Below are positions 2,038 through 25,218 of a DNA stretch of 32,000 nt, one piece after another. The stretch is taken from contig NZ_AP014945.1 in the NCBI RefSeq assembly GCF_001548275.1, positions 1,320,001 to 1,352,000 on the forward strand, written 5' to 3'. The position numbers were made by a program, and so were the translations under genes. The notes under the pieces are model-generated. The model did no database searches and was not told the origin of the DNA. It saw only the letters and a list, made by a program, of their open reading frames with translations. Origin of the DNA: Caldimicrobium thiodismutans. Its GTDB lineage: Bacteria > Desulfobacterota > Thermodesulfobacteria > Thermodesulfobacteriales > Thermodesulfobacteriaceae. Position 1 is the stretch's first letter, and every line of letters begins with the position of its first letter.

Positions 2038-3003
2038 TTAACCACCCTGGTGGCAGGTTTCACAGTTAAAATTAGCTGATTTTCCCTCTCCATGACACAT
2101 GAAACAATACTGATCTTTTTTGTGAGTATCAAAGGTGATATTGCTTGTGCCAGCCTTCATCTTAAAAAGAGAGGGATGACAGGTATTACATTCAAACATC
2201 TGCACATGGAAGTTGTGGGAAAATTTGGCAGGATTTCCAGCCTTTGAAAGGATTATATCCCTCATCTGAATAGTTTCTTTGTTTTTTATATGGCAATTTG
2301 AACAAACTGTTTCTCCCTCACAGATATTGGCTGAAGCAAGATTTATAAATTCCCCTCCATGGGCTACCCTTCTATGACAGAAGACACAGTTGATGCCAGC
2401 TTTTATATGAGAGGCATGCTTTGGATCTATATCAGGATTTCGCCTCACAGGATCAGTCATGATATCTATCATGTTTTTAGAGGTTCTAAAAGCAGGATTT
2501 TTAACAGTATCAAGGGTTCTAAAGGTAATCCCTGCTAAAGTCATCATCCTGCTTGCGCGTATTTTCTGATTGTAATAATCGGTATGACAGAAAAGACAGG
2601 ACTCCATAGAAACCACTTTTGAGGCATATACTGGATCATTAAAGGCTTTATGAAGAATCTCAAGCATGTGCTTTTGACCCTTGAAGGCAAAATTGAAGGT
2701 ATCTTTTAAACCCTTCAATTTAGCCTGCATATAATTAAAAAATCCTGGTTCCCCGTGGCAGTCAAGACAGGCCACATTATTTTGGGAGTGAATGTTTTTA
2801 CCCCAAGTATAGACCTCAGCTAAAGGTCCTGTGCCTTCCTTGGGGTGACACTTAGCGCAAAACTGTGGGTTACTGGTAAAGTGTAGAACTTCTACATTAA
2901 TGTAAACAAAGGCGACCAGAAGACCAACCAGAATTAATAAAGTCAAAAGAGGCCTTCCTTGAATAAAGGCCTTGATTGAAGATACAATTCCTCCATTCCC
3001 CAT
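2038..3003 (-). CDS. Membrane-anchored octaheme cytochrome c, NapC/NirT-like N-terminal part fused to a c7-like triheme C-terminal part
   Basis: N-terminal TM helix. Eight CXXCH motifs (CAKCH, CLDCH, CLFCH, CVFCH, CSNCH, CNTCH, CFMCH, CETCH). The first two have NapC/NirT-type spacing. The C-terminal FSHNFH...CNTCH...CFMCHG...CETCH repeats the c7 pattern. Confidence 0.8.
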   Translation of the reverse strand: MGNGGIVSSIKAFIQGRPLLTLLILVGLLVAFVYINVEVLHFTSNPQFCAKCHPKEGTGPLAEVYTWGKNIHSQNNVACLDCHGEPGFFNYMQAKLKGLKDTFNFAFKGQKHMLEILHKAFNDPVYASKVVSMESCLFCHTDYYNQKIRASRMMTLAGITFRTLDTVKNPAFRTSKNMIDIMTDPVRRNPDIDPKHASHIKAGINCVFCHRRVAHGGEFINLASANICEGETVCSNCHIKNKETIQMRDIILSKAGNPAKFSHNFHVQMFECNTCHPSLFKMKAGTSNITFDTHKKDQYCFMCHGEGKSANFNCETCHQGG

Positions 3004-3287: not shown

Positions 3288-3399
3288 CGTATAAGTCCAT
3301 ATCTTTTGAGACTCCATAGGATTTTTTCTACTACTTCTCCTATTACCTCTCACCTTTTACCACCCTCCATTTCTCTTTGTAAGGATGTGAATTTATGCA
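3288..3399 (-). mobile_element. MITE-like short copy (112 bp) of the Rpn-associated TIR repeat family
   Basis: On the - strand it reads TGCATAAATTCACATCCTTACAAAGAG...GAGTCTCAAAAGATATGGACTTATACG. Both ends match the family ends seen at 8872, 10873, 12800, 16482 and 19283. Boundaries are good to a few nt. Confidence 0.7.
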
Positions 3400-3405
3400 C
3401 CCTTT

Positions 3406-4275
3406 TTATATTTGAGACAGGAGGTCATAGAGAAGACCTCCACCTATGGAGAGTATTAACCAGGAGAAAAGATAGTAAAGGACCACTTTTAGCGGTAAGA
3501 AGCGTAAGGAAGCTATTAAAGTAGGGACACAGATCCCACTCCCAGCCAGAACAAAGACCATGGCCTGCCCAGGGGTAAAACCAAGGTCAAGAAAGGCTTT
3601 TGCTAAAGGCACTTCCTCCCCTGAGCAAACATAAATAGGGATAGAAATGAGGGCTATCAAAAAATAAGAAAGGGAGCTTTTAGATAGAAAGGTCAATTTT
3701 TCAGGGGGTAAAAAGGTTACAAGTAGGGAGGCTATCAAGAGGCCAAGAAAAAGATATTTTCCTATCTCAAGCCCCTCTTCTTTGAAAGCAGACCACACCT
3801 TTTTAAGATTTTTTTTCTTTGGAAGGGGTTCACCTTCTGAATATTCAAGGGTCTTTTCTTTCTTTTTAAAAAGAAAAAGGGTCAAATAAGCAAGAATAAT
3901 AGAGATAAGAAAGCTAAAAATGAGTCGAAAAAGGGCAAATTTAGGCCCAAGTAATCCTAAGGTCAAAAAAATAGTTACAGGGGAAATAACCGGACCAATC
4001 ATGAGGAAGGCAAGGACTGGGGCAAAGTTAAAGGAAAAGTTGTGAATATAATAGGCTAAAGGAATCACAGAGCAAGAACAAACAGGCAAAAGGGCAGCCA
4101 GTGTCCCTGTTAAAAAGGGGGCAGATTTTTTAAGTCTTAGAACCCTGATAATAAGAGAGGTATCTAAATATACCTTTAAAAAACTTACTATAAAAAGGGC
4201 CAGAATAAAATAAGGTAAGATAGCTACACTATAATCCCAAAAATGCCATAGAAATTTAAAGAAGATTTCTTGCAT
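3406..4275 (-). CDS. Predicted permease of the ArsP/DUF318 (COG0701) type with CxC motif
   Basis: Polytopic membrane protein with the family-typical LLPVCSCSVIPLA motif. Its start abuts the stop of the upstream histidine kinase, so they share an operon. Confidence 0.7.
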   Translation of the reverse strand: MQEIFFKFLWHFWDYSVAILPYFILALFIVSFLKVYLDTSLIIRVLRLKKSAPFLTGTLAALLPVCSCSVIPLAYYIHNFSFNFAPVLAFLMIGPVISPVTIFLTLGLLGPKFALFRLIFSFLISIILAYLTLFLFKKKEKTLEYSEGEPLPKKKNLKKVWSAFKEEGLEIGKYLFLGLLIASLLVTFLPPEKLTFLSKSSLSYFLIALISIPIYVCSGEEVPLAKAFLDLGFTPGQAMVFVLAGSGICVPTLIASLRFLPLKVVLYYLFSWLILSIGGGLLYDLLSQI

Positions 4276-6825
4276 TTATTTTAAAACCTCAAGTACCTTA
4301 GATAGGGAAAAAGGTTTGTAAAGGATAGCATCCAAATTGAGGCCCTCAGCCTCTTTTTTAAGTTCTTCTTCAGTAAAGCCAGTAATTATAATACTTTTTA
4401 CTTTTCTAAGGTCAAAACCTATCTCCTGAAGTCGGCGTAAGAGGTAAATCCCACCTTTTCCCTTTGGAACGGTCAAATCAAGAATTAGATGGGTATAAGG
4501 ATTTCCCTCTCGTTCAGCAGATAAAATCATCTCAAAGGCAGTCTCCCCTTCTTCTGCAGTCTCAATCTGAATGCCCTGCTCACTTAAAAATTCTTTTAGA
4601 ACCTCTCGGATTTCAGCTTCATCGTCCATAACCAAGACCTTTAAAGTCCCCTTTGCTTTTTTAGAAGGCTCAACTTCAACACCCTTTAGGGATTTAACCG
4701 AGGGAAAGAAAAGTGTAACGCTTGTGCCTTCACCAGGATGGCTAAATATCTCAATTTTACCATTATACATATCCATAATTCTTTTGACCACATAGAGCCC
4801 AAGACCTGTCCCATGGGCCTTAGTGGTAAAACCTGGCTCAAAAATTTTATTTTTCACCTCTTCAGGTATACCTGGCCCTGTATCAGATACCTCAACCTTG
4901 ATAAAATTATCCACCTTTTGCGCTTTTATTCTCAATTCTCCGGAGTTTTCCATAGCCTCTCTGGCATTAAGAATAAGGTTTTGGATAATAGAAAGAAGAT
5001 GATTCTCCTGTAAATTAACAAAAAGATTTTCTTCAATATCCAGAGTTAAAGCCACAGATGAGCCTTTAAGATAAAAGGGAGCCCACTTCTTTAAGAATTC
5101 TCCTAAATTAATAAATTCTTCCCGTTTGAGTTCTCCTCTTGAAATAATAAAGAGCTCAGAGACAAGGTTTTTCATACGGTCAAAAGCCTCTTCTACTTTG
5201 GAAAGATAATTAAGTTCCTTTTCCCCATACTTTTTAAGTCTTTCTCCAAGGAGCTCAAGATAACCCTTTATAATCATGAGAAGATTATTTAGATCATGGG
5301 CAAGGCCTCCAGCTATCTTTTCAAGAACAATTTCTTTTTCCTCTCTGAAAAGTTTCTCCTCAATAAGTTTTCTTTCCGTTACATCTTGAATAATTCCTAT
5401 GAAAAGCCTTTTACCTTCAAAAATAAACTCGTCAAAATATACCTCTGCAGGAAAGAGCTCTCCTGTCTTTCTGCGGGCTTGAAATTCAATTCTCCTTTTG
5501 GCAAGCTTAGACTTTTCTCCCATAGAAATTTTTTGAAAGACCTCTTTAGCTCGTTTTCTTAAATTAGGATCAGCTACAAGGAGTTGGTGTAGATTCACTC
5601 CTTTAAGCTCATCTATGGAATAACCAGTAATCTCTGAAAGTCTTGAATTTACAAAAATTACCTTATCTTCTGTATCTATGACAGAAACTCCGATAGGTAA
5701 AAATTCAAGCACTCTCTGAATGAAATTAAAGGCCTCTTCTTTTAATCTTAAGTATTCTGTAATATCTTCAAAGGCTGAGTAGATAAGTTTTTTTCCATTT
5801 TCTTCATAAAGCCTTGATGAGATAAGGGCTGTATATGACTCACCTGAGAGTCTTTTATATTTAAACTCAAGATGGTTAATCTTTTTTTCCTTGATAAGTT
5901 TTTCTATAAAGGCCTTTCTGTCCTCGGGATTAAGCCAGAAGTCTTGATCCCTGTAATTTTTTAAAAGGGCAGGATCAGAGACCCCAAAAAGCTCCCTTGC
6001 CCTGCGATTTACTCTAAGAATTTCTCCCTCTGGTGTTGAAACTACAAGCGCAATTCCTGACTCTTCAAAAAGCCTGATCTGCTCAGTAATATCAGCGTAA
6101 AAAGTGATTTTGTAAATCTTTTCGGAATTTATCTTAAAGATTTTGAAATGCCTTATAAAATACTTGTCTAAGAGCGGGGAATAAACCTCCTTTTCTTCTT
6201 CAACTTTTCCCTCAATAAGGAGTGGACACTTTGAACAGGGTTTATCATTTCCAAAGATTAATTCATAACATTTGGGATGCTCAGTATTACAGAGTCTTTT
6301 GAGGTTTTCGTTCATGTAAAGGATGTTAAACTTCTCATCATTTACAAAGAATAAACCAGGATAGGTATCAACAACTGCTTCTAAAAGCCTTCTAAGTTCC
6401 GCTTTTTGGGTTTCATCTTCAATGAAATGAAGATATCCAATGGGTATATCTTCCTCATAGAGGGGAAAAAGGGTAACCCTGAGGTATTTTTTAAGCCTTG
6501 GCTCATAAAAGTCTTTAAAAAAAATGCCCTTAGATTTGGTTTTTTTATCTTCTGGGCAGATTTTACAAGTAGGGCAGAAGGCTGTATTAGTTTCACAGCC
6601 TGAAAGGAGACAGGGCTCTCCTTCCTTAAGAGGACAAAAATTGGGAAGCTCCTTTAGCCCATGCACCACTTCATAACAGTATTTTCCCTCAAGGTCTTCT
6701 CTTTTTTTATTTAGAAGCCTTAAAAAAGGCTCATTGACCTTAAGAATCTTATTATCAATACTTAAGAAAAAGGCCGGGAATCTTGATTCCTCAAGAACCC
6801 TTTCTACATTAAGATTTAATTTCAT
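4276..6825 (-). CDS. Multi-PAS hybrid sensor histidine kinase with C-terminal receiver domain
   Basis: H-box AGGLAHDLNNLL, N-box IIQNLILNAREAM, G-boxes VSDTGPGIP and GTGLGLYVV. Receiver VLVMDDE...ILDLTVPKGKGG...KPF. Several PAS-like repeats. N-terminal Cys-rich segments (CPLKEGEPCLLSGCETNTAFCPTCKICP and CYELIFGNDKPCSKCP). Confidence 0.9.
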   Translation of the reverse strand: MKLNLNVERVLEESRFPAFFLSIDNKILKVNEPFLRLLNKKREDLEGKYCYEVVHGLKELPNFCPLKEGEPCLLSGCETNTAFCPTCKICPEDKKTKSKGIFFKDFYEPRLKKYLRVTLFPLYEEDIPIGYLHFIEDETQKAELRRLLEAVVDTYPGLFFVNDEKFNILYMNENLKRLCNTEHPKCYELIFGNDKPCSKCPLLIEGKVEEEKEVYSPLLDKYFIRHFKIFKINSEKIYKITFYADITEQIRLFEESGIALVVSTPEGEILRVNRRARELFGVSDPALLKNYRDQDFWLNPEDRKAFIEKLIKEKKINHLEFKYKRLSGESYTALISSRLYEENGKKLIYSAFEDITEYLRLKEEAFNFIQRVLEFLPIGVSVIDTEDKVIFVNSRLSEITGYSIDELKGVNLHQLLVADPNLRKRAKEVFQKISMGEKSKLAKRRIEFQARRKTGELFPAEVYFDEFIFEGKRLFIGIIQDVTERKLIEEKLFREEKEIVLEKIAGGLAHDLNNLLMIIKGYLELLGERLKKYGEKELNYLSKVEEAFDRMKNLVSELFIISRGELKREEFINLGEFLKKWAPFYLKGSSVALTLDIEENLFVNLQENHLLSIIQNLILNAREAMENSGELRIKAQKVDNFIKVEVSDTGPGIPEEVKNKIFEPGFTTKAHGTGLGLYVVKRIMDMYNGKIEIFSHPGEGTSVTLFFPSVKSLKGVEVEPSKKAKGTLKVLVMDDEAEIREVLKEFLSEQGIQIETAEEGETAFEMILSAEREGNPYTHLILDLTVPKGKGGIYLLRRLQEIGFDLRKVKSIIITGFTEEELKKEAEGLNLDAILYKPFSLSKVLEVLK

Positions 6826-8451: not shown

Positions 8452-8871
8452 AAGGCCTTCCCCTTTGTAATTTTTACAAAAAAAATTATAATCTGCATTT
8501 TCATAAAGTAAAGAAAAAAAAATAGATAAATTTAAGATTTAATCTCTTGAGAAGATTTTTTTCTTGCAAAGGAATATATAATGGGCATATACATAGGTTA
8601 AATCAAAGAATTTATACAGGGGAGGCTTTACATTTAATGATAAAGGGAAACTCAAATTTATTTGCTTCCCTCCCCTCCTTTTAATTGTCAATTTTTCCCG
8701 GGAATAATTCCCTTTTTCTCTAAAAAGTCTCTCTCAGGCAATTTCTTATATTTCCGTATCTTTCTGTAAAGCTTCTTTCCTATCTACCCAGTTTTTCCTT
8801 TAATACGAGCTTTGCCAGGGGACTTAAAGTCTACCTCTCGTAAATTTAAGAGGAGCAAAATAACCTCTCTC

Positions 8872-9216
8872 TGCATAAGTTCAGATCCTTACAAGAAAAA
8901 GGAAGGGTGATAAAAGAGGAATTAGCTATCTTTACGAGGGAAGCTTTACAAGTCTGAAAGTAACACAGGCAATCTTGCCTGTGGAGGTAAATTACACTCC
9001 AATGTATGAAAGAAACACAGACAAGAATGTCTGTACTACAACAGACCCACAAAAAAATTCAAGGGGTATAAAATTTTAAACCCCTACTTAAGGAAAGATT
9101 TTGCAGATTTTTTATCCTTTCTTTCCGAAAGGGAATGGGTATGTGGAGAGATTTAATTTGTGTTCCGTCCTATGAAAAAAAATTTTTTTGAGTCTCAAAA
9201 GCTTTGGACTTATACA
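8872..9216 (+). mobile_element. MITE-like long copy (345 bp) of the Rpn-associated TIR repeat family, carries the three-hairpin cargo
   Basis: Left end TGCATAAGTTCAGATCCTTACAAGAAAAAGG, right end GAGTCTCAAAAGCTTTGGACTTATACA. The first ~215 bp are about 88-90% identical by eye to 19283-19500. Confidence 0.75.
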
Positions 9217-9222
9217 AACCTC

Positions 9223-9251
9223 TTGACTCTAAGAGAAATATTTGAAATAAT
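9223..9251 (+). promoter_or_regulatory. Putative sigma70-type promoter of the GYD gene (TTGACT-N17-AATAAT)
   Basis: -35 TTGACT at 9223-9228, 17-nt spacer, -10 AATAAT at 9246-9251, 32 nt before the ATG. Starts 6 nt after the repeat right end. Sequence-only prediction. Confidence 0.35.
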
Positions 9252-10872: not shown

Positions 10873-11049
10873 TATATGGGTCCATATCTTTTGAGACTCA
10901 AGAAGATTCTTTTTACTATTTCTGTTGTTGGAAAAGGCACCTGTATTTTGTAGGGGCAAACCTTTGTGTTTGCCCTCTTTTGGCTCTCCTCCTTCACCTT
11001 TCACCTTTTACCACTCTTCCTTTTTCTTGTAAAAATCTGAACTTATGCA
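10873..11049 (-). mobile_element. MITE-like copy (177 bp) of the Rpn-associated TIR repeat family
   Basis: The - strand reads TGCATAAGTTCAGATTTTTACAAGAAAAAGGAAGAGTGGTAAAAGG...GAGTCTCAAAAGATATGGACCCATATA. Flanked on both sides by GGGGG (10868-10872 and 11050-11054). Confidence 0.7.
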
Positions 11050-12799: not shown

Positions 12800-12889
12800 T
12801 GTTTGCATCCATATCTTCTGAGACCTAATGAGGATTTTTTCCACCCTCTTTTTTTTCTTATAAAAACTTATAAAATTATGAACCTATGC
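12800..12889 (-). mobile_element. MITE-like minimal copy (~90 bp) of the Rpn-associated TIR repeat family
   Basis: The - strand reads (G)GCATAGGTTCATAATTTTATAAG...GGTCTCAGAAGATATGGATGCAAACA. This is the most diverged copy. It fills most of the rgy-ccsA intergenic space. Confidence 0.55.
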
Positions 12890-16394: not shown

Positions 16395-16460
16395 CTCCCC
16401 TCCTATTTTGATGTTGCCCCTTTATCTTAGAGGATTTTTTCTTTTTTCCAAGGGGATTAA

Positions 16461-17504
16461 CTCCTTATTTTTACAGGGAAATCTATAAGTTCATATCCTT
16501 ACAAGAAACCTCCCATTCCCTATGACCTTTTTGCCAAGGCCTTCCTCAAAGACCCTGAAAACTTAAAAGGCTTCCTCTTAACCTTCCTCCCTGATCACAT
16601 TAAAACTCATCTTGACCTTGACTCCCTTAAAATCATCCCTGAAGAACAAGTTTCTCTTTCAAGAAAAAAGCGAGAAATCCCGGACCTTGTTGCTGAGGTT
16701 AATCTTCTTAGTGAAGGGAAACCTTCAACCAAAGCCCATCTCTATATCCTTATTGAGCACAAAAGTGCACCTGATAAAAGGATTTATCTTCAGATTTTAA
16801 ATTACATAACCGCATTAAATGAGAGGTCTCTCAAGGAGGGGAAGGGGTATGTGCCTGTTTTACCTCTTGTGTTTTATGAAGGGGATAAGCCCTGGGTGTA
16901 TCCTGAAAGGATAGAGGAGATATTTTCAGTGCCAGAGGGGTTAAAGGGAGAACTTTTTAAGGTTCATGTGGTAGATTTAAAGAGGGTAGAGGATGAGAAG
17001 ATACTGGAGGTATTTGATATTTTAGCAGGGCTTGGGTGTTATCTTTATTTAATGAAGGTGGAAGCAGGTAATTTTGAAGAGATGATAGATATGGTGGTAA
17101 GAGCGGTAAATAGGTTAATTGCGATAGGGGAGAAGGGGAGGTGGGAGATAGGGTTTTTAATTACGATATCTGAAATAAAGTTTAGGGTTGACGGGGAGGT
17201 AATCTGGTTTAATATATTAGATAGGTGTGGAGAAGAGGGGGTAAAGATGGAGTTAAAGAGCTTTTGGGATAGAGTGGGAGAGAAGTTTTATAAGCAGGGA
17301 ATTGAGCAGGGGAAATATCAGGGGTTAATTGAGGAGGCAAGGGAGCTTGTGCTTGAGGCCATAGAGGTGAAGCTTGGGTATGTGCCTGAGGAAGTGAGGG
17401 AGAGGGTGGTAAGGGAAGAGGATAGAGGAGTTCTTAAAGCGTGGCATAGAGAAATAATTCTTGCCAAGGGTTCCGAAGATATCTTTAAACTCTTTGAAAA
17501 TTGA
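16461..17504 (+). CDS. Rpn family recombination-promoting nuclease / putative transposase (Transposase_31, PD-(D/E)XK N-domain plus DUF4351-like C-terminal helices); start codon unresolved, possibly a pseudogene
   Basis: The frame is open from 16461 (after TAA at 16458-16460). N-terminal PYDLFAKAFLKDPENLKGFL...PDLVAEV...YILIEHKS matches the Rpn motifs (HDxxFK; D...IEHQS). C-terminal FYKQGIEQGKYQGLIEEARELVLEAIEVKLGYVPEEVRERV is typical of the family. The first ATG/GTG/TTG in frame is GTG at 16851. Confidence 0.75.
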   Translation, partial: LLIFTGKSISSYPYKKPPIPYDLFAKAFLKDPENLKGFLLTFLPDHIKTHLDLDSLKIIPEEQVSLSRKKREIPDLVAEVNLLSEGKPSTKAHLYILIEHKSAPDKRIYLQILNYITALNERSLKEGKGYVPVLPLVFYEGDKPWVYPERIEEIFSVPEGLKGELFKVHVVDLKRVEDEKILEVFDILAGLGCYLYLMKVEAGNFEEMIDMVVRAVNRLIAIGEKGRWEIGFLITISEIKFRVDGEVIWFNILDRCGEEGVKMELKSFWDRVGEKFYKQGIEQGKYQGLIEEARELVLEAIEVKLGYVPEEVRERVVREEDRGVLKAWHREIILAKGSEDIFKLFEN

Positions 17505-17622
17505 TAATTTTATAAATTTTTTTAACCTATCTAACTTTATCTGCAAAAATCGGTGGCACTGATCTACCAAAAGAGATAGATTTGAGTTTCAAAAGATATG
17601 GACGCATACAGGCTATTGACAA
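16482..17622 (+). mobile_element. Full-length (1141 bp) member of the TIR repeat family, encoding the Rpn/YhgA-like PD-(D/E)XK protein
   Basis: Left end TCTATAAGTTCATATCCTTACAAGAAA and right end GAGTTTCAAAAGATATGGACGCATACA match the ends of the five short copies. The interior is the rpn-like reading frame plus about 90 bp. Confidence 0.6.
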
Positions 17623-17660
17623 AATATAAAAGGGGGGTTATTTTTTATATAATCTTTTGG

Positions 17661-17735
17661 GGCCGTAGCTCAGAGGGAGAGCGCGTGAATGGCATTCACG
17701 AGGTCGAGGGTTCAAGTCCCTCCGGCTCCACCATT
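17661..17735 (+). tRNA. tRNA-Ala (anticodon GGC), CCA encoded
   Basis: Cloverleaf folds by hand. Acceptor GGGGCCG/CGGCTCC with the G3:U70 alanine identity pair. Anticodon stem CGTGA/TCACG with loop ATGGCAT. T-arm GAGGG-TTCAAGT-CCCTC. Confidence 0.95.
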
Positions 17736-19282: not shown

Positions 19283-19531
19283 TGCATAAGTTCAGATCAT
19301 TACAAGAAAAAAGGAAGGGTAGTAAAAGGGGAATTAGATATCTATACAAGGGAGGCTTTACAAGTCTGAAAGTAACACAGGCAATCTTGCCTGTAAAAGT
19401 TAATTACACTCCAATGTATGAAAGTAACACAGACAAGAATGTCTGTGCTACAAGAGACCCACAAAAAAATTCAAGGGGTTTAAAATTTTAAACCCCAACT
19501 ATTTAAGTCTCAAAAGACCTGAACGCATACA
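19283..19531 (+). mobile_element. MITE-like long copy (249 bp) of the Rpn-associated TIR repeat family, carries the three-hairpin cargo
   Basis: Left end TGCATAAGTTCAGATCATTACAAGAAAAAAGG, right end AAGTCTCAAAAGACCTGAACGCATACA. Close paralogue of 8872-9216. Confidence 0.75.
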
Positions 19532-24516: not shown

Positions 24517-25218
24517 CCCAAATTTGCCGATAGAAATTTTAAAATTTAGATACTATCCAGCTTTGCTCTTCTTTTGCTCTTTCAGTTATCCATTGAGGGA
24601 ATTTTTATGCTCTTTTACCAGTCTTTTACAATGTTTTATCTCATCTAATCAGCCTCTACCCCTTTAATCTTCTCAATTTTGCCTGTTTTAAAAAACACTA
24701 CCCCCTCCTATTCCTTCCATCTCAATCTCAGTTCTTTGTTATTTATCCCTTTTATCCTGATAATTCTGCATGCCTGAGCCTTATCTTTTTATAAAGTATA
24801 AACTTCTCTACCTCTGCATATATCTTCAGACACAGCCTCCGGGCATGTTTTACTACCTTGCCAGCTACCTCTATGAAAATCCATCTTATGCTCTGAATTG
24901 TCTTTGTCCTCATAGACTCCGGTAATACAAAATACTTCTTCATGCCTGTGAGTTTCCTTAGTCCTCTATTATCTCCCTCAACTCTTCTATGTGTCTGCCA
25001 CCTCCTATAAGCATAAATAATATAGGCTCTATATAATGCCATGCCTTGTATCCCCTGTTTGAACCAGGCTCTGGCATATGCCTCTCCATGGCATCCTTTA
25101 TCCCAAAGGACCTTAAAAACTCTGACCAGATGGCTACTGGGTGATATTATATCATCCAGAAATCTAAATACAAAAGGAGGCTTTTGGATTTTTGATTGTT
25201 TCTATCGGCAAATTAGGG
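24517..25218 (-). mobile_element. Internally deleted IS remnant (IS1380-family-like) bounded by inverted repeats
   Basis: Perfect 16-bp inverted repeat AATTTGCCGATAGAAA at 24521-24536 and its complement at 25199-25214, extending to 19/20 as CCC(A/T)AATTTGCCGATAGAAA. The ends begin CC, as recalled for IS1380-family IRs. Only about 700 bp long. Confidence 0.5.
24752..25201 (-). pseudogene. Truncated DDE transposase fragment (C-terminal part, IS1380/IS4-like)
   Basis: The frame is open from inside the right IR. The C-terminal TIQSIRWIFIEVAGKVVKHARRLCLKI resembles the conserved C-terminal helix of IS1380/IS4-type transposases. It is far too short for an intact enzyme. Confidence 0.45.

Follow-up and report, generated by a model that had tools for sequence, protein, structure and literature searches.

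A promoter-targeting MITE family in Caldimicrobium thiodismutans and the rpn gene that lies between two of its ends

Introduction

Six intergenic blocks within a stretch of 32,000 nucleotides from Caldimicrobium thiodismutans (contig NZ_AP014945.1, positions 1,320,001 to 1,352,000 of the forward strand; this whole stretch is called the window, and its own numbering is used throughout) share the same two ends, and the longest of them, a block of 1.14 kb, encloses an open frame of the Rpn nuclease type. A first-pass annotation of this DNA took the long block for the autonomous parent of a candidate new type of mobile element, with Rpn acting as its transposase. The locus raises the question of what moves these repeats, and whether rpn is their engine or has merely come to lie between their ends. 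The answer that best accommodates the evidence, and that we consider probable, is a promoter-targeting family of miniature inverted-repeat transposable elements (MITEs) in which rpn is a passenger or an insertion and not the element's transposase, much as the same annotation had allowed in its fallback reading of rpn as a passenger or chance insertion into a MITE.

Orthologous regions were located by exact look-up of window proteins in three related assemblies, L041 (metagenome-assembled genome, MAG, GCA_017880035.1), L042 (JGI sample 3300038964) and L043 (Logan run SRR12784215), while loci of rpn paralogues were compared in the relatives L034, L035 and L036. L035, L036 and L041 belong to one MAG, and L034 and L042 to the same JGI sample. 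The ends were searched with profiles (nhmmer) built from the left and right ends, and the set of 11 distinct copies comprises the six of the window and five in L034, L035 and L036, in about 80 kb of Caldimicrobium sequence.

The repeat family and its mobility

The left end of the family spans about 50 nt (TGCATAAGTTCAGATCCTTACAAGAAAAAGGAAGGGTGGTAAAAGG) and the right end about 40 nt (...GAGTCTCAAAAGATATGGACNNATACA), both common to the six window blocks, and the interiors between them are variable in size and rich in hairpins. Within the window, right ends were recovered in all six blocks at E<=1.2e-7 and left ends in five of six at E<=1.7e-5. The remaining left end, that of the block at 12800–12889, is weak (E=0.36) because of a 13-nt internal expansion that is missing from its L041 orthologue, where the left end scores E=3.7e-6. 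Profile matches thus placed all six blocks of the first-pass annotation, although two boundaries had to be moved, the long block closing at 17610 rather than 17622 and the copy thought to begin at 8872 beginning at 8869. The ends form a genuine, if imperfect, TG...CA inverted repeat: most copies match at 12–14 of the first 19 positions, where chance would give 5.2 +/- 1.9 on average (P~1e-4 for at least 14). The match counts reported earlier (15/24 and 16/24) were about right; the left end and the reverse-complemented right end are only about 70% complementary. The 11 distinct copies are dispersed and range from 90 to 348 bp. No conserved open reading frame (ORF) was found in them, and an Rfam scan of the window returned two tRNAs only and no Rfam family for the MITE. 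The five short copies of the window, with the target-site duplication of one of them, are as follows.

3288–3399, minus strand: MITE copy of 112 bp (left end E=5e-14, right end E=3e-9); the right end faces a cytochrome c gene at 2038–3003 (minus strand)
8862–8868, plus strand: left copy of the 7-bp target-site duplication AACCTCT, from comparison with the empty sites of L041, L042 and L043
8869–9216, plus strand: MITE copy of 348 bp, a recent insertion specific to the window genome
9217–9223, plus strand: right copy of the duplication AACCTCT, whose final T opens the −35 box TTGACT (9223–9228) of a GYD gene promoter
10873–11049, minus strand: MITE copy of 177 bp with CCCCC on either flank; the right end faces a DEAD-box helicase gene
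12800–12889, minus strand: short MITE copy of 90 bp with the 13-nt internal expansion; the right end lies 4 nt from TTGCTA-17-TATATT, upstream of a ccsA-like gene
19283–19531, plus strand: MITE copy of 249 bp; the right end lies 5 nt from TTGGAA-17-AATAAT of ribBA

Five of the six window copies occupy sites shared with the relatives L041, L042 and L043, among them the copy at 3288–3399, which L041 and L042 carry at the corresponding position, while that at 19283–19531 has its orthologue in L034 and L041. The exception is the copy at 8869–9216, which is absent from all three relatives between otherwise near-identical flanks. The empty sites read ...CAAAAT AACCTCT TGACTC..., and the occupied site of the window reads ...CAAAAT AACCTCT (CTC TGCATAAG...TTATACA) AACCTCT TGACTC..., with the element in parentheses, so that the size difference of 355 bp is accounted for by 348 bp of element and 7 bp of duplicated target. 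The three assemblies are independent and include L041, the most divergent, so a single event in the lineage leading to the window explains the pattern most simply. The inserted copy is 92% identical across 193 nt to the copy beginning at 19283. Traces of duplication persist around older copies as well, a best 7-mer of at least 6/7 being found in three of ten own flank pairs compared with one of 90 mismatched pairs. Insertion therefore generates a 7-bp target duplication, as shown at the copy that has an empty site. The search of related strains for unoccupied sites, which the first-pass annotation had recommended, thus bears out its description of the short blocks as MITE-like elements bounded by terminal inverted repeats (TIRs), and the family is a small non-coding TIR transposon that has been mobile recently.

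Several features of the copies and their distribution may be added. The interiors contain short GC-clamped hairpin modules (ACACAGGCAATCTTGCCTGTG, GGGCAAAC...GTTTGCCC, GGGGTTTAAAATTTTAAACCCC), exemplified in the window at 8962–8983, 9014–9037, 9063–9085, 10953–10976, 19376–19395 and 19475–19496, some of which score as terminator-like. A promoter-like, inward-facing site lies inside the right end (TTGAGA-17-TACTAT / TAAAAT; window 10891–10919 on the plus strand and 19513–19485 on the minus strand), from which reading is predicted to run from right end to left end, divergently from the targeted promoter. At L035 14840–15111 two family members stand back to back, a full minus-strand copy serving a tRNA-Leu promoter and a plus-strand copy without left end serving the rimP promoter, which suggests a nested or overlapping insertion. 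The left-end pattern had no matches in viral contigs and four in marine metagenome contigs, these being matches of the pattern only and at about chance level for 21 fixed bases. A BLASTN search of plasmids and phages with the 348-bp copy gave no match, and a protein-database search with a spurious ORF read across the MITE yielded no candidate further copies.

Insertion next to promoters

The orientation and position of the copies are highly regular. Without exception, the 11 distinct copies direct their right end towards the beginning of a gene or tRNA lying downstream, and in nine a TTG begins at +5 to +7 after the right end, exactly at +6 in seven of them. The longer motif TTGAC is present in six of the 11, for which the binomial P is ~1e-10 at the frequency of TTGAC in the window, and many of the −35-like hexamers are followed 16–17 nt further on by a −10-like box, such as TTGACT-17-AATAAT of the GYD gene promoter next to the copy at 8869–9216. 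Four copies sit 43–50 nt upstream of tRNA genes, those for Ala, Ser, Leu and Met. The −35 box is part of the target and is not borne by the element, because the empty sites already contain AACCTCTTGACTC. Insertion is thus directional and precise, with the right end placed 5–6 nt upstream of a pre-existing −35 hexamer (TTGACA) of the sigma-70 type.

A constant orientation and a fixed position relative to the −35 box might also be expected of immobile repeats, that is, of conserved upstream regulatory modules in which paired regulator-binding sites are kept by selection, and an inverted pair of sites could indeed bind a dimeric factor. As an origin of the copies this is refuted by the presence/absence polymorphism with its clean 7-bp duplication at an otherwise identical site; moreover, copies at unrelated loci share interiors with 92% identity across 193 nt, and interiors are generally variable in size and rich in hairpins, leaving regulatory modules a highly unlikely explanation. 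The spacing between right end and −35 box is too exact for selection alone. Together with the orientation, it leads us to infer a transposase with specificity for TTGAC or the promoter complex, one that does not handle the two unequal ends alike. A secondary regulatory effect is possible all the same, in that inserted copies may change the expression of downstream genes.

The rpn block

The long block occupies one such target, the tRNA-Ala promoter, and consists of the following parts.

16482–16508, plus strand: MITE left-end fragment of 27 nt (nhmmer E=1.7e-5), joined directly to rpn at about codon 4
16503–17526, plus strand: rpn (RpnL-type PD-(D/E)XK, PF04754) without promoter, ATG and first codons; stop codon at 17502–17504
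17247–17504, plus strand: candidate RpnS (antitoxin-type) internal ORF of 85 aa, its ATG after GAGGGGG, with QGIE/QGIK four-residue repeats from residue 17
17573–17610, plus strand: MITE right end, separated by 5 nt from the −35 box of the tRNA-Ala promoter downstream (nhmmer E=8.5e-9; identical in L034 and L041)
17616–17733, plus strand: −35 box TTGACA (17616–17621), promoter and tRNA-Ala(GGC) gene (17659–17733), the target adjoining the right end

On the right, the element closes at 17610 (...GCATACA), and positions 17611–17622 are made up of five spacer bases, TTGACA and one further base. On the left, the junction reads ...CCTTACAAGAAA followed directly by CCTCCC, the left end taking the place of the rpn promoter, its ATG and about four codons. 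That the interior is essentially one open frame with an Rpn match was seen correctly in the first-pass annotation, but this frame (16458–17504), which holds the left end within it, has no ATG, GTG or TTG before 16851, and Pfam found no match in it to DUF4351, the domain that its tail had been said to resemble. Promoter, ATG and about four codons being gone, the GenBank annotation covers just a 217-aa tail from the GTG at 16851 (THC_1337), to which the window frame is 100% identical.

A transposon running from left end through rpn to right end, with the PD-(D/E)XK protein as its transposase and the short copies as its internal deletions, would explain why both ends flank rpn in an orientation fitting a single element and why the frame stays open through the left end in the window genome; nor was any other transposase seen in the roughly 80 kb of related sequence. 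The comparison with relatives removes much of this appeal. The same junction is found at the orthologous locus between reverse gyrase and tRNA-Ala in L041 and L042, with one extra A that places the left end out of frame, and the L041 orthologue is further frameshifted, its gene being split into pieces of 75 and 108 aa. That the left end can be read through without interruption in the window is thus accidental, and the arrangement was inherited, not transposed. Neither a start codon nor a promoter is present, no target duplication surrounds the block (its flanks agree at 2/7), and rpn between both ends was seen at this one orthologous locus only. MITE interiors hold no rpn-derived sequence, local alignments scoring at the level of shuffles, which contradicts the idea that the short copies are internally deleted derivatives of an rpn element. 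Add to this that the ends are missing from those paralogues whose 5' end is intact (see below), and that published work offers no evidence of autonomous transposition by rpn genes, which probably hitch-hike or move by recombination, and knows no autonomous PD-(D/E)XK transposase (PMC10400941), and an autonomous Rpn element becomes very hard to believe.

Might the two ends instead be remnants of separate MITEs, or have been joined by recombination between rpn paralogues? The rpn DNA of the window is a mosaic, its 5' third being closest to L036 and its 3' half identical to L034, so gene conversion or recombination has also acted at the locus; the missing target duplication would fit such a history too, as would the differing contexts of rpn copies between assemblies. 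Nevertheless, both ends are oriented as in a single element, the right end stands at the usual 5-nt spacing from its −35 box, and part of the reshuffling of contexts is perhaps an assembly artefact, L042 ending inside rpn. We regard this alternative as unlikely, although it deserves more credit than the other competing explanations considered here.

Caution is required for synteny across rpn in metagenome contigs, since the rpn repeat is probably what lies behind an assembly break or chimera. L034, in which rpsO, MITE and rpn are joined to tRNA-Ala, may be such a chimera formed via the rpn repeat, L042 from the same sample stopping inside rpn beside reverse gyrase. The L034 order rpsO, MITE, rpn, right end, tRNA-Ala was considered as proof of recombination and was downgraded on this account, and no claim of rearrangement rests on L034.

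The most likely history would begin with a MITE inserting in its customary manner, the right end 5 nt short of the −35 box of tRNA-Ala. The rpn unit would then have come to lie inside it, as passenger or insertion, and a deletion would have removed the MITE interior together with the rpn promoter and start codon, plausibly by way of AAGAAA, a microhomology shared by the left end and rpn codons 3–5. The DNA upstream of the left end was also considered as a degraded rpn leader and rejected, as it has no similarity to that leader (P~0.7–0.9).

Downstream of the gene, the 70 nt between the rpn stop and the right end have no significant match in other MITE interiors, bar one AT-rich stretch shared with the copy at 12800–12889. 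The 13-nt expansion of that copy (window 12850–12880), absent from L041, creates TAATTTTATAAGTTTTTATAA, which matches TAATTTTATAAATTTTTTTAA, the 21 nt right after the rpn stop (17505–17526), at 19/21 positions. This likeness is probably a chance product of AT-rich, low-complexity sequence.

The nature of rpn and its paralogues

The frame matches PF04754 (Transposase_31) at E=4.6e-28 over residues 20–189 and TIGR01784/RpnA at 53.6 bits, above the cutoff, and contains the D...ExK motif as PDLVAEV...IEHKS. The four-residue repeats of RpnS proteins are described as starting 8–20 residues after Met and varying in number between homologues (PMC10400941). In the candidate RpnS of the window they start at residue 17, and repeat number varies among the paralogues, whose proteins measure 332, 336 and 344 aa, L036 carrying a 48-nt insertion. 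Judged by these predicted features, the window rpn is an ordinary nuclease gene of the RpnL/RpnS toxin–antitoxin type. An intact full-length RpnL was not found at the locus, the start being missing in the window and the L041 orthologue frameshifted, and the window copy is predicted to give no RpnL from the normal start while its RpnS frame is intact. At this locus the gene is a decaying pseudogene, the RpnS part of which is perhaps still expressed.

The paralogues of L034, L035 and L036 have an intact 5' end and encode proteins 90–94% identical to the window frame; those of C. thiodismutans are THC_0837 and THC_0388, and the comparison of ends covered the relatives' loci. Intact paralogues start with a conserved promoter, TTGAAA-16-CAAAAT, followed by ATG TCA AAG AAG AAA CCT... 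Homology between them runs from the −35 box to about 22 nt beyond the stop and includes no terminal repeats, and homology with the window rpn runs from AAGAAACC to about 22 nt beyond the stop. The left end is absent beside rpn in all three loci. In L035 neither end adjoins the gene, and in L036 the right end appears only as a 15-nt exact fragment some 165 nt downstream. A complete MITE, in opposite orientation and serving a tRNA-Ser promoter, stands 95 bp upstream of rpn in L034 and L035. The first-pass annotation had itself named paralogues lacking these ends as the observation that would speak against its proposal, and they occur even among the loci of one MAG (L035, L036 and L041), so that the expectation of ends beside every rpn paralogue fails. 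Further afield, a scan of genome contigs with the intact Rpn P0002 yielded nothing beyond distant Rpn genes and L001, a relative with 49% identity; in the 21-kb UBA6232 locus L001, rpn is present, MITE ends were not found, and inverted repeats around the gene were chance-level pairs only.

The intact genes appear to be leaderless (L034 9960–10003; L036 2330–2366), with TTGAAA or TTGAAT, a 16-nt spacer, CAAAAT and the ATG 6 nt on, and no ribosome-binding site.

Weighing the evidence

The probable account, a MITE family in which rpn is only a passenger or an insertion, would have another locus supply the transposase in trans. This would most probably be a DDE enzyme able to tell the two unequal ends apart, with TTGAC or the promoter complex as its recognition target. 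Some observations sit less easily with it. No transposase with matching ends was found in the ~80 kb of Caldimicrobium sequence, which leaves the trans-acting DDE enzyme putative. A demonstrable empty site exists for one copy only, and the exact left terminus is uncertain by the 2–3 variable bases between the duplication and TGCAT. The possible chimera in L034 may weaken those arguments from synteny that depend on it. Finally, a right end or its 15-nt exact fragment lies downstream of rpn in the same orientation at two of three distinct rpn loci, the third having a full MITE 95 bp upstream, and MITE sequence occurs less than 200 bp from all three (P~0.02 against MITE density, a rough and not rigorous estimate).

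Since this proximity somewhat exceeds the expectation from density, a functional link keeps a small probability. It could take the form of Rpn from intact paralogues acting in trans on MITE ends, as a partner like that of RAYT and REPIN or as a TnsA-like nuclease subunit, for which the closeness of MITE sequence to every distinct rpn locus and the exact right-end fragment behind the L036 gene would speak, as would the fact that Rpn is a DNA endonuclease (PMC5350276). Tested Rpn proteins are, however, without sequence specificity (PMC5350276). The association is only marginal, given that MITEs are dense in intergenic DNA, and L001 has rpn without such ends. A staggered 7-bp duplication and TG...CA ends, as found here, together mark DDE strand transfer, a reaction of which a PD-(D/E)XK nuclease alone is incapable. 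An action of Rpn in trans is therefore very improbable, if a little less so than an autonomous Rpn element.

The broader notion that Caldimicrobium rpn is functionally tied to the MITE, be it as a TnsA- or RAYT-like nuclease partner or as cargo captured by the ends, appears very improbable as well; the same low probability goes with a separate idea, that of a possible new class of transposase reading the −35 hexamer at an offset of 5–6 bp.

Comparison with known systems

By every feature that could be assessed, the family conforms to the bacterial MITE type. It resembles Correia/NEMIS elements of Neisseria, RUP and ERIC-type MITEs in its small size (90–350 bp), absence of coding capacity, imperfect TIRs, many dispersed intergenic copies, target-site duplication, strain-specific insertions and placement next to promoters. 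It differs from them in its unrelated sequence, in a duplication of 7 bp rather than TA, and in insertion that is strictly oriented at a fixed 5–6 nt from an existing −35 hexamer.

Closer in its mode of action is the group of TnGBS, ISLre2 and ISKra4, which insert in one orientation upstream of sigma-A promoters with the right repeat beside the promoter, an orientation that has been ascribed to their unequal left and right repeats; these elements lie 15–17 bp upstream of the −35 box and make duplications of 8–9 bp (PMC3942029). Oriented insertion, a right repeat by a sigma-70-type promoter and unequal ends are common to the Caldimicrobium MITE and this group, whereas distance (5–6 bp) and duplication (7 bp) set it apart. 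Membership in these Mutator-like elements is not supported, the likeness being one of mode of action only.

With the YhgA-like RpnL/RpnS toxin–antitoxin nuclease genes of E. coli and others (PF04754; PMC5350276, PMC10400941), the rpn studied here shares the D...ExK motif, a small C-terminal ORF with its own ribosome-binding site, four-residue repeats that vary between paralogues, several paralogues per genome and the want of terminal repeats of its own. What sets the window copy apart is the loss of promoter and start codon and its place between MITE ends.

A short repeat family near copies of a nuclease-type gene also brings to mind REP/REPIN-RAYT systems. RAYTs are HUH (IS200-like) enzymes flanked by their own REPs, and REPINs make no target duplications. 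In contrast, intact rpn is not flanked by the MITE repeat, and the MITE does make target duplications.

Neighbouring genes and other elements

The window also contains genes for a cytochrome, a sensor kinase, a GGDEF protein, a DEAD-box helicase, ribBA, ATP synthase, tRNA-Ala and tRNA-Phe. The 1164-aa gene next to the rpn block encodes reverse gyrase, which fits a thermophile.

A remnant of a different insertion sequence, 702 bp long, lies at 24517–25218 with 20-bp TIRs (CCCAAATTTGCCGATAGAAA / TTTCTATCGGCAAATTAGGG, 19/20 matches). Encoded on its minus strand is a DDE_Tnp_1_4 transposase fragment, from the C-terminal part of the protein (PF13701, E=7.6e-4, under the Pfam cutoff). This DDE fragment (24755–25042) was considered as the missing transposase of the MITE and rejected, its own 20-bp repeats (CCCAAATTTGCCGATAGAAA) being unrelated to the MITE ends. 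The remnant is placed exactly at a synteny break with the JGI contig (L034/L047), which has in its place about 2.7 kb with a MITE, two DUF488 genes, a DuOB gene and an 82-aa ORF. In the intergenic region between cytochrome and ArsP genes, L041 (~4190–4300, corresponding to window ~3220) is longer than the window and L042 by about 100 bp; similar GGAAAGAGTG.GTGG.AAGGTAAA stretches delimit the additional DNA, which has no relation to the MITE family.

Conclusions

Rpn as the driver of a candidate new type of mobile element is not supported, and this outcome agrees with the published view of Rpn proteins as toxin–antitoxin defence nucleases and not transposases. The gene caught between MITE ends is nonetheless a concrete though unproven example of the possible hitch-hiking of rpn; were MITE ends really to carry rpn as cargo, they would supply a concrete mechanism for its unexplained spread. 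What the locus does reveal is that a thermophilic, sulfur-disproportionating bacterium harbours a MITE family of recent activity, whose copies stand in one orientation at a fixed 5–6 bp from existing −35 hexamers, often before tRNA genes. Its partner transposase could widen the picture of oriented promoter targeting, so far documented for Mutator-like elements such as TnGBS, ISLre2 and ISKra4.

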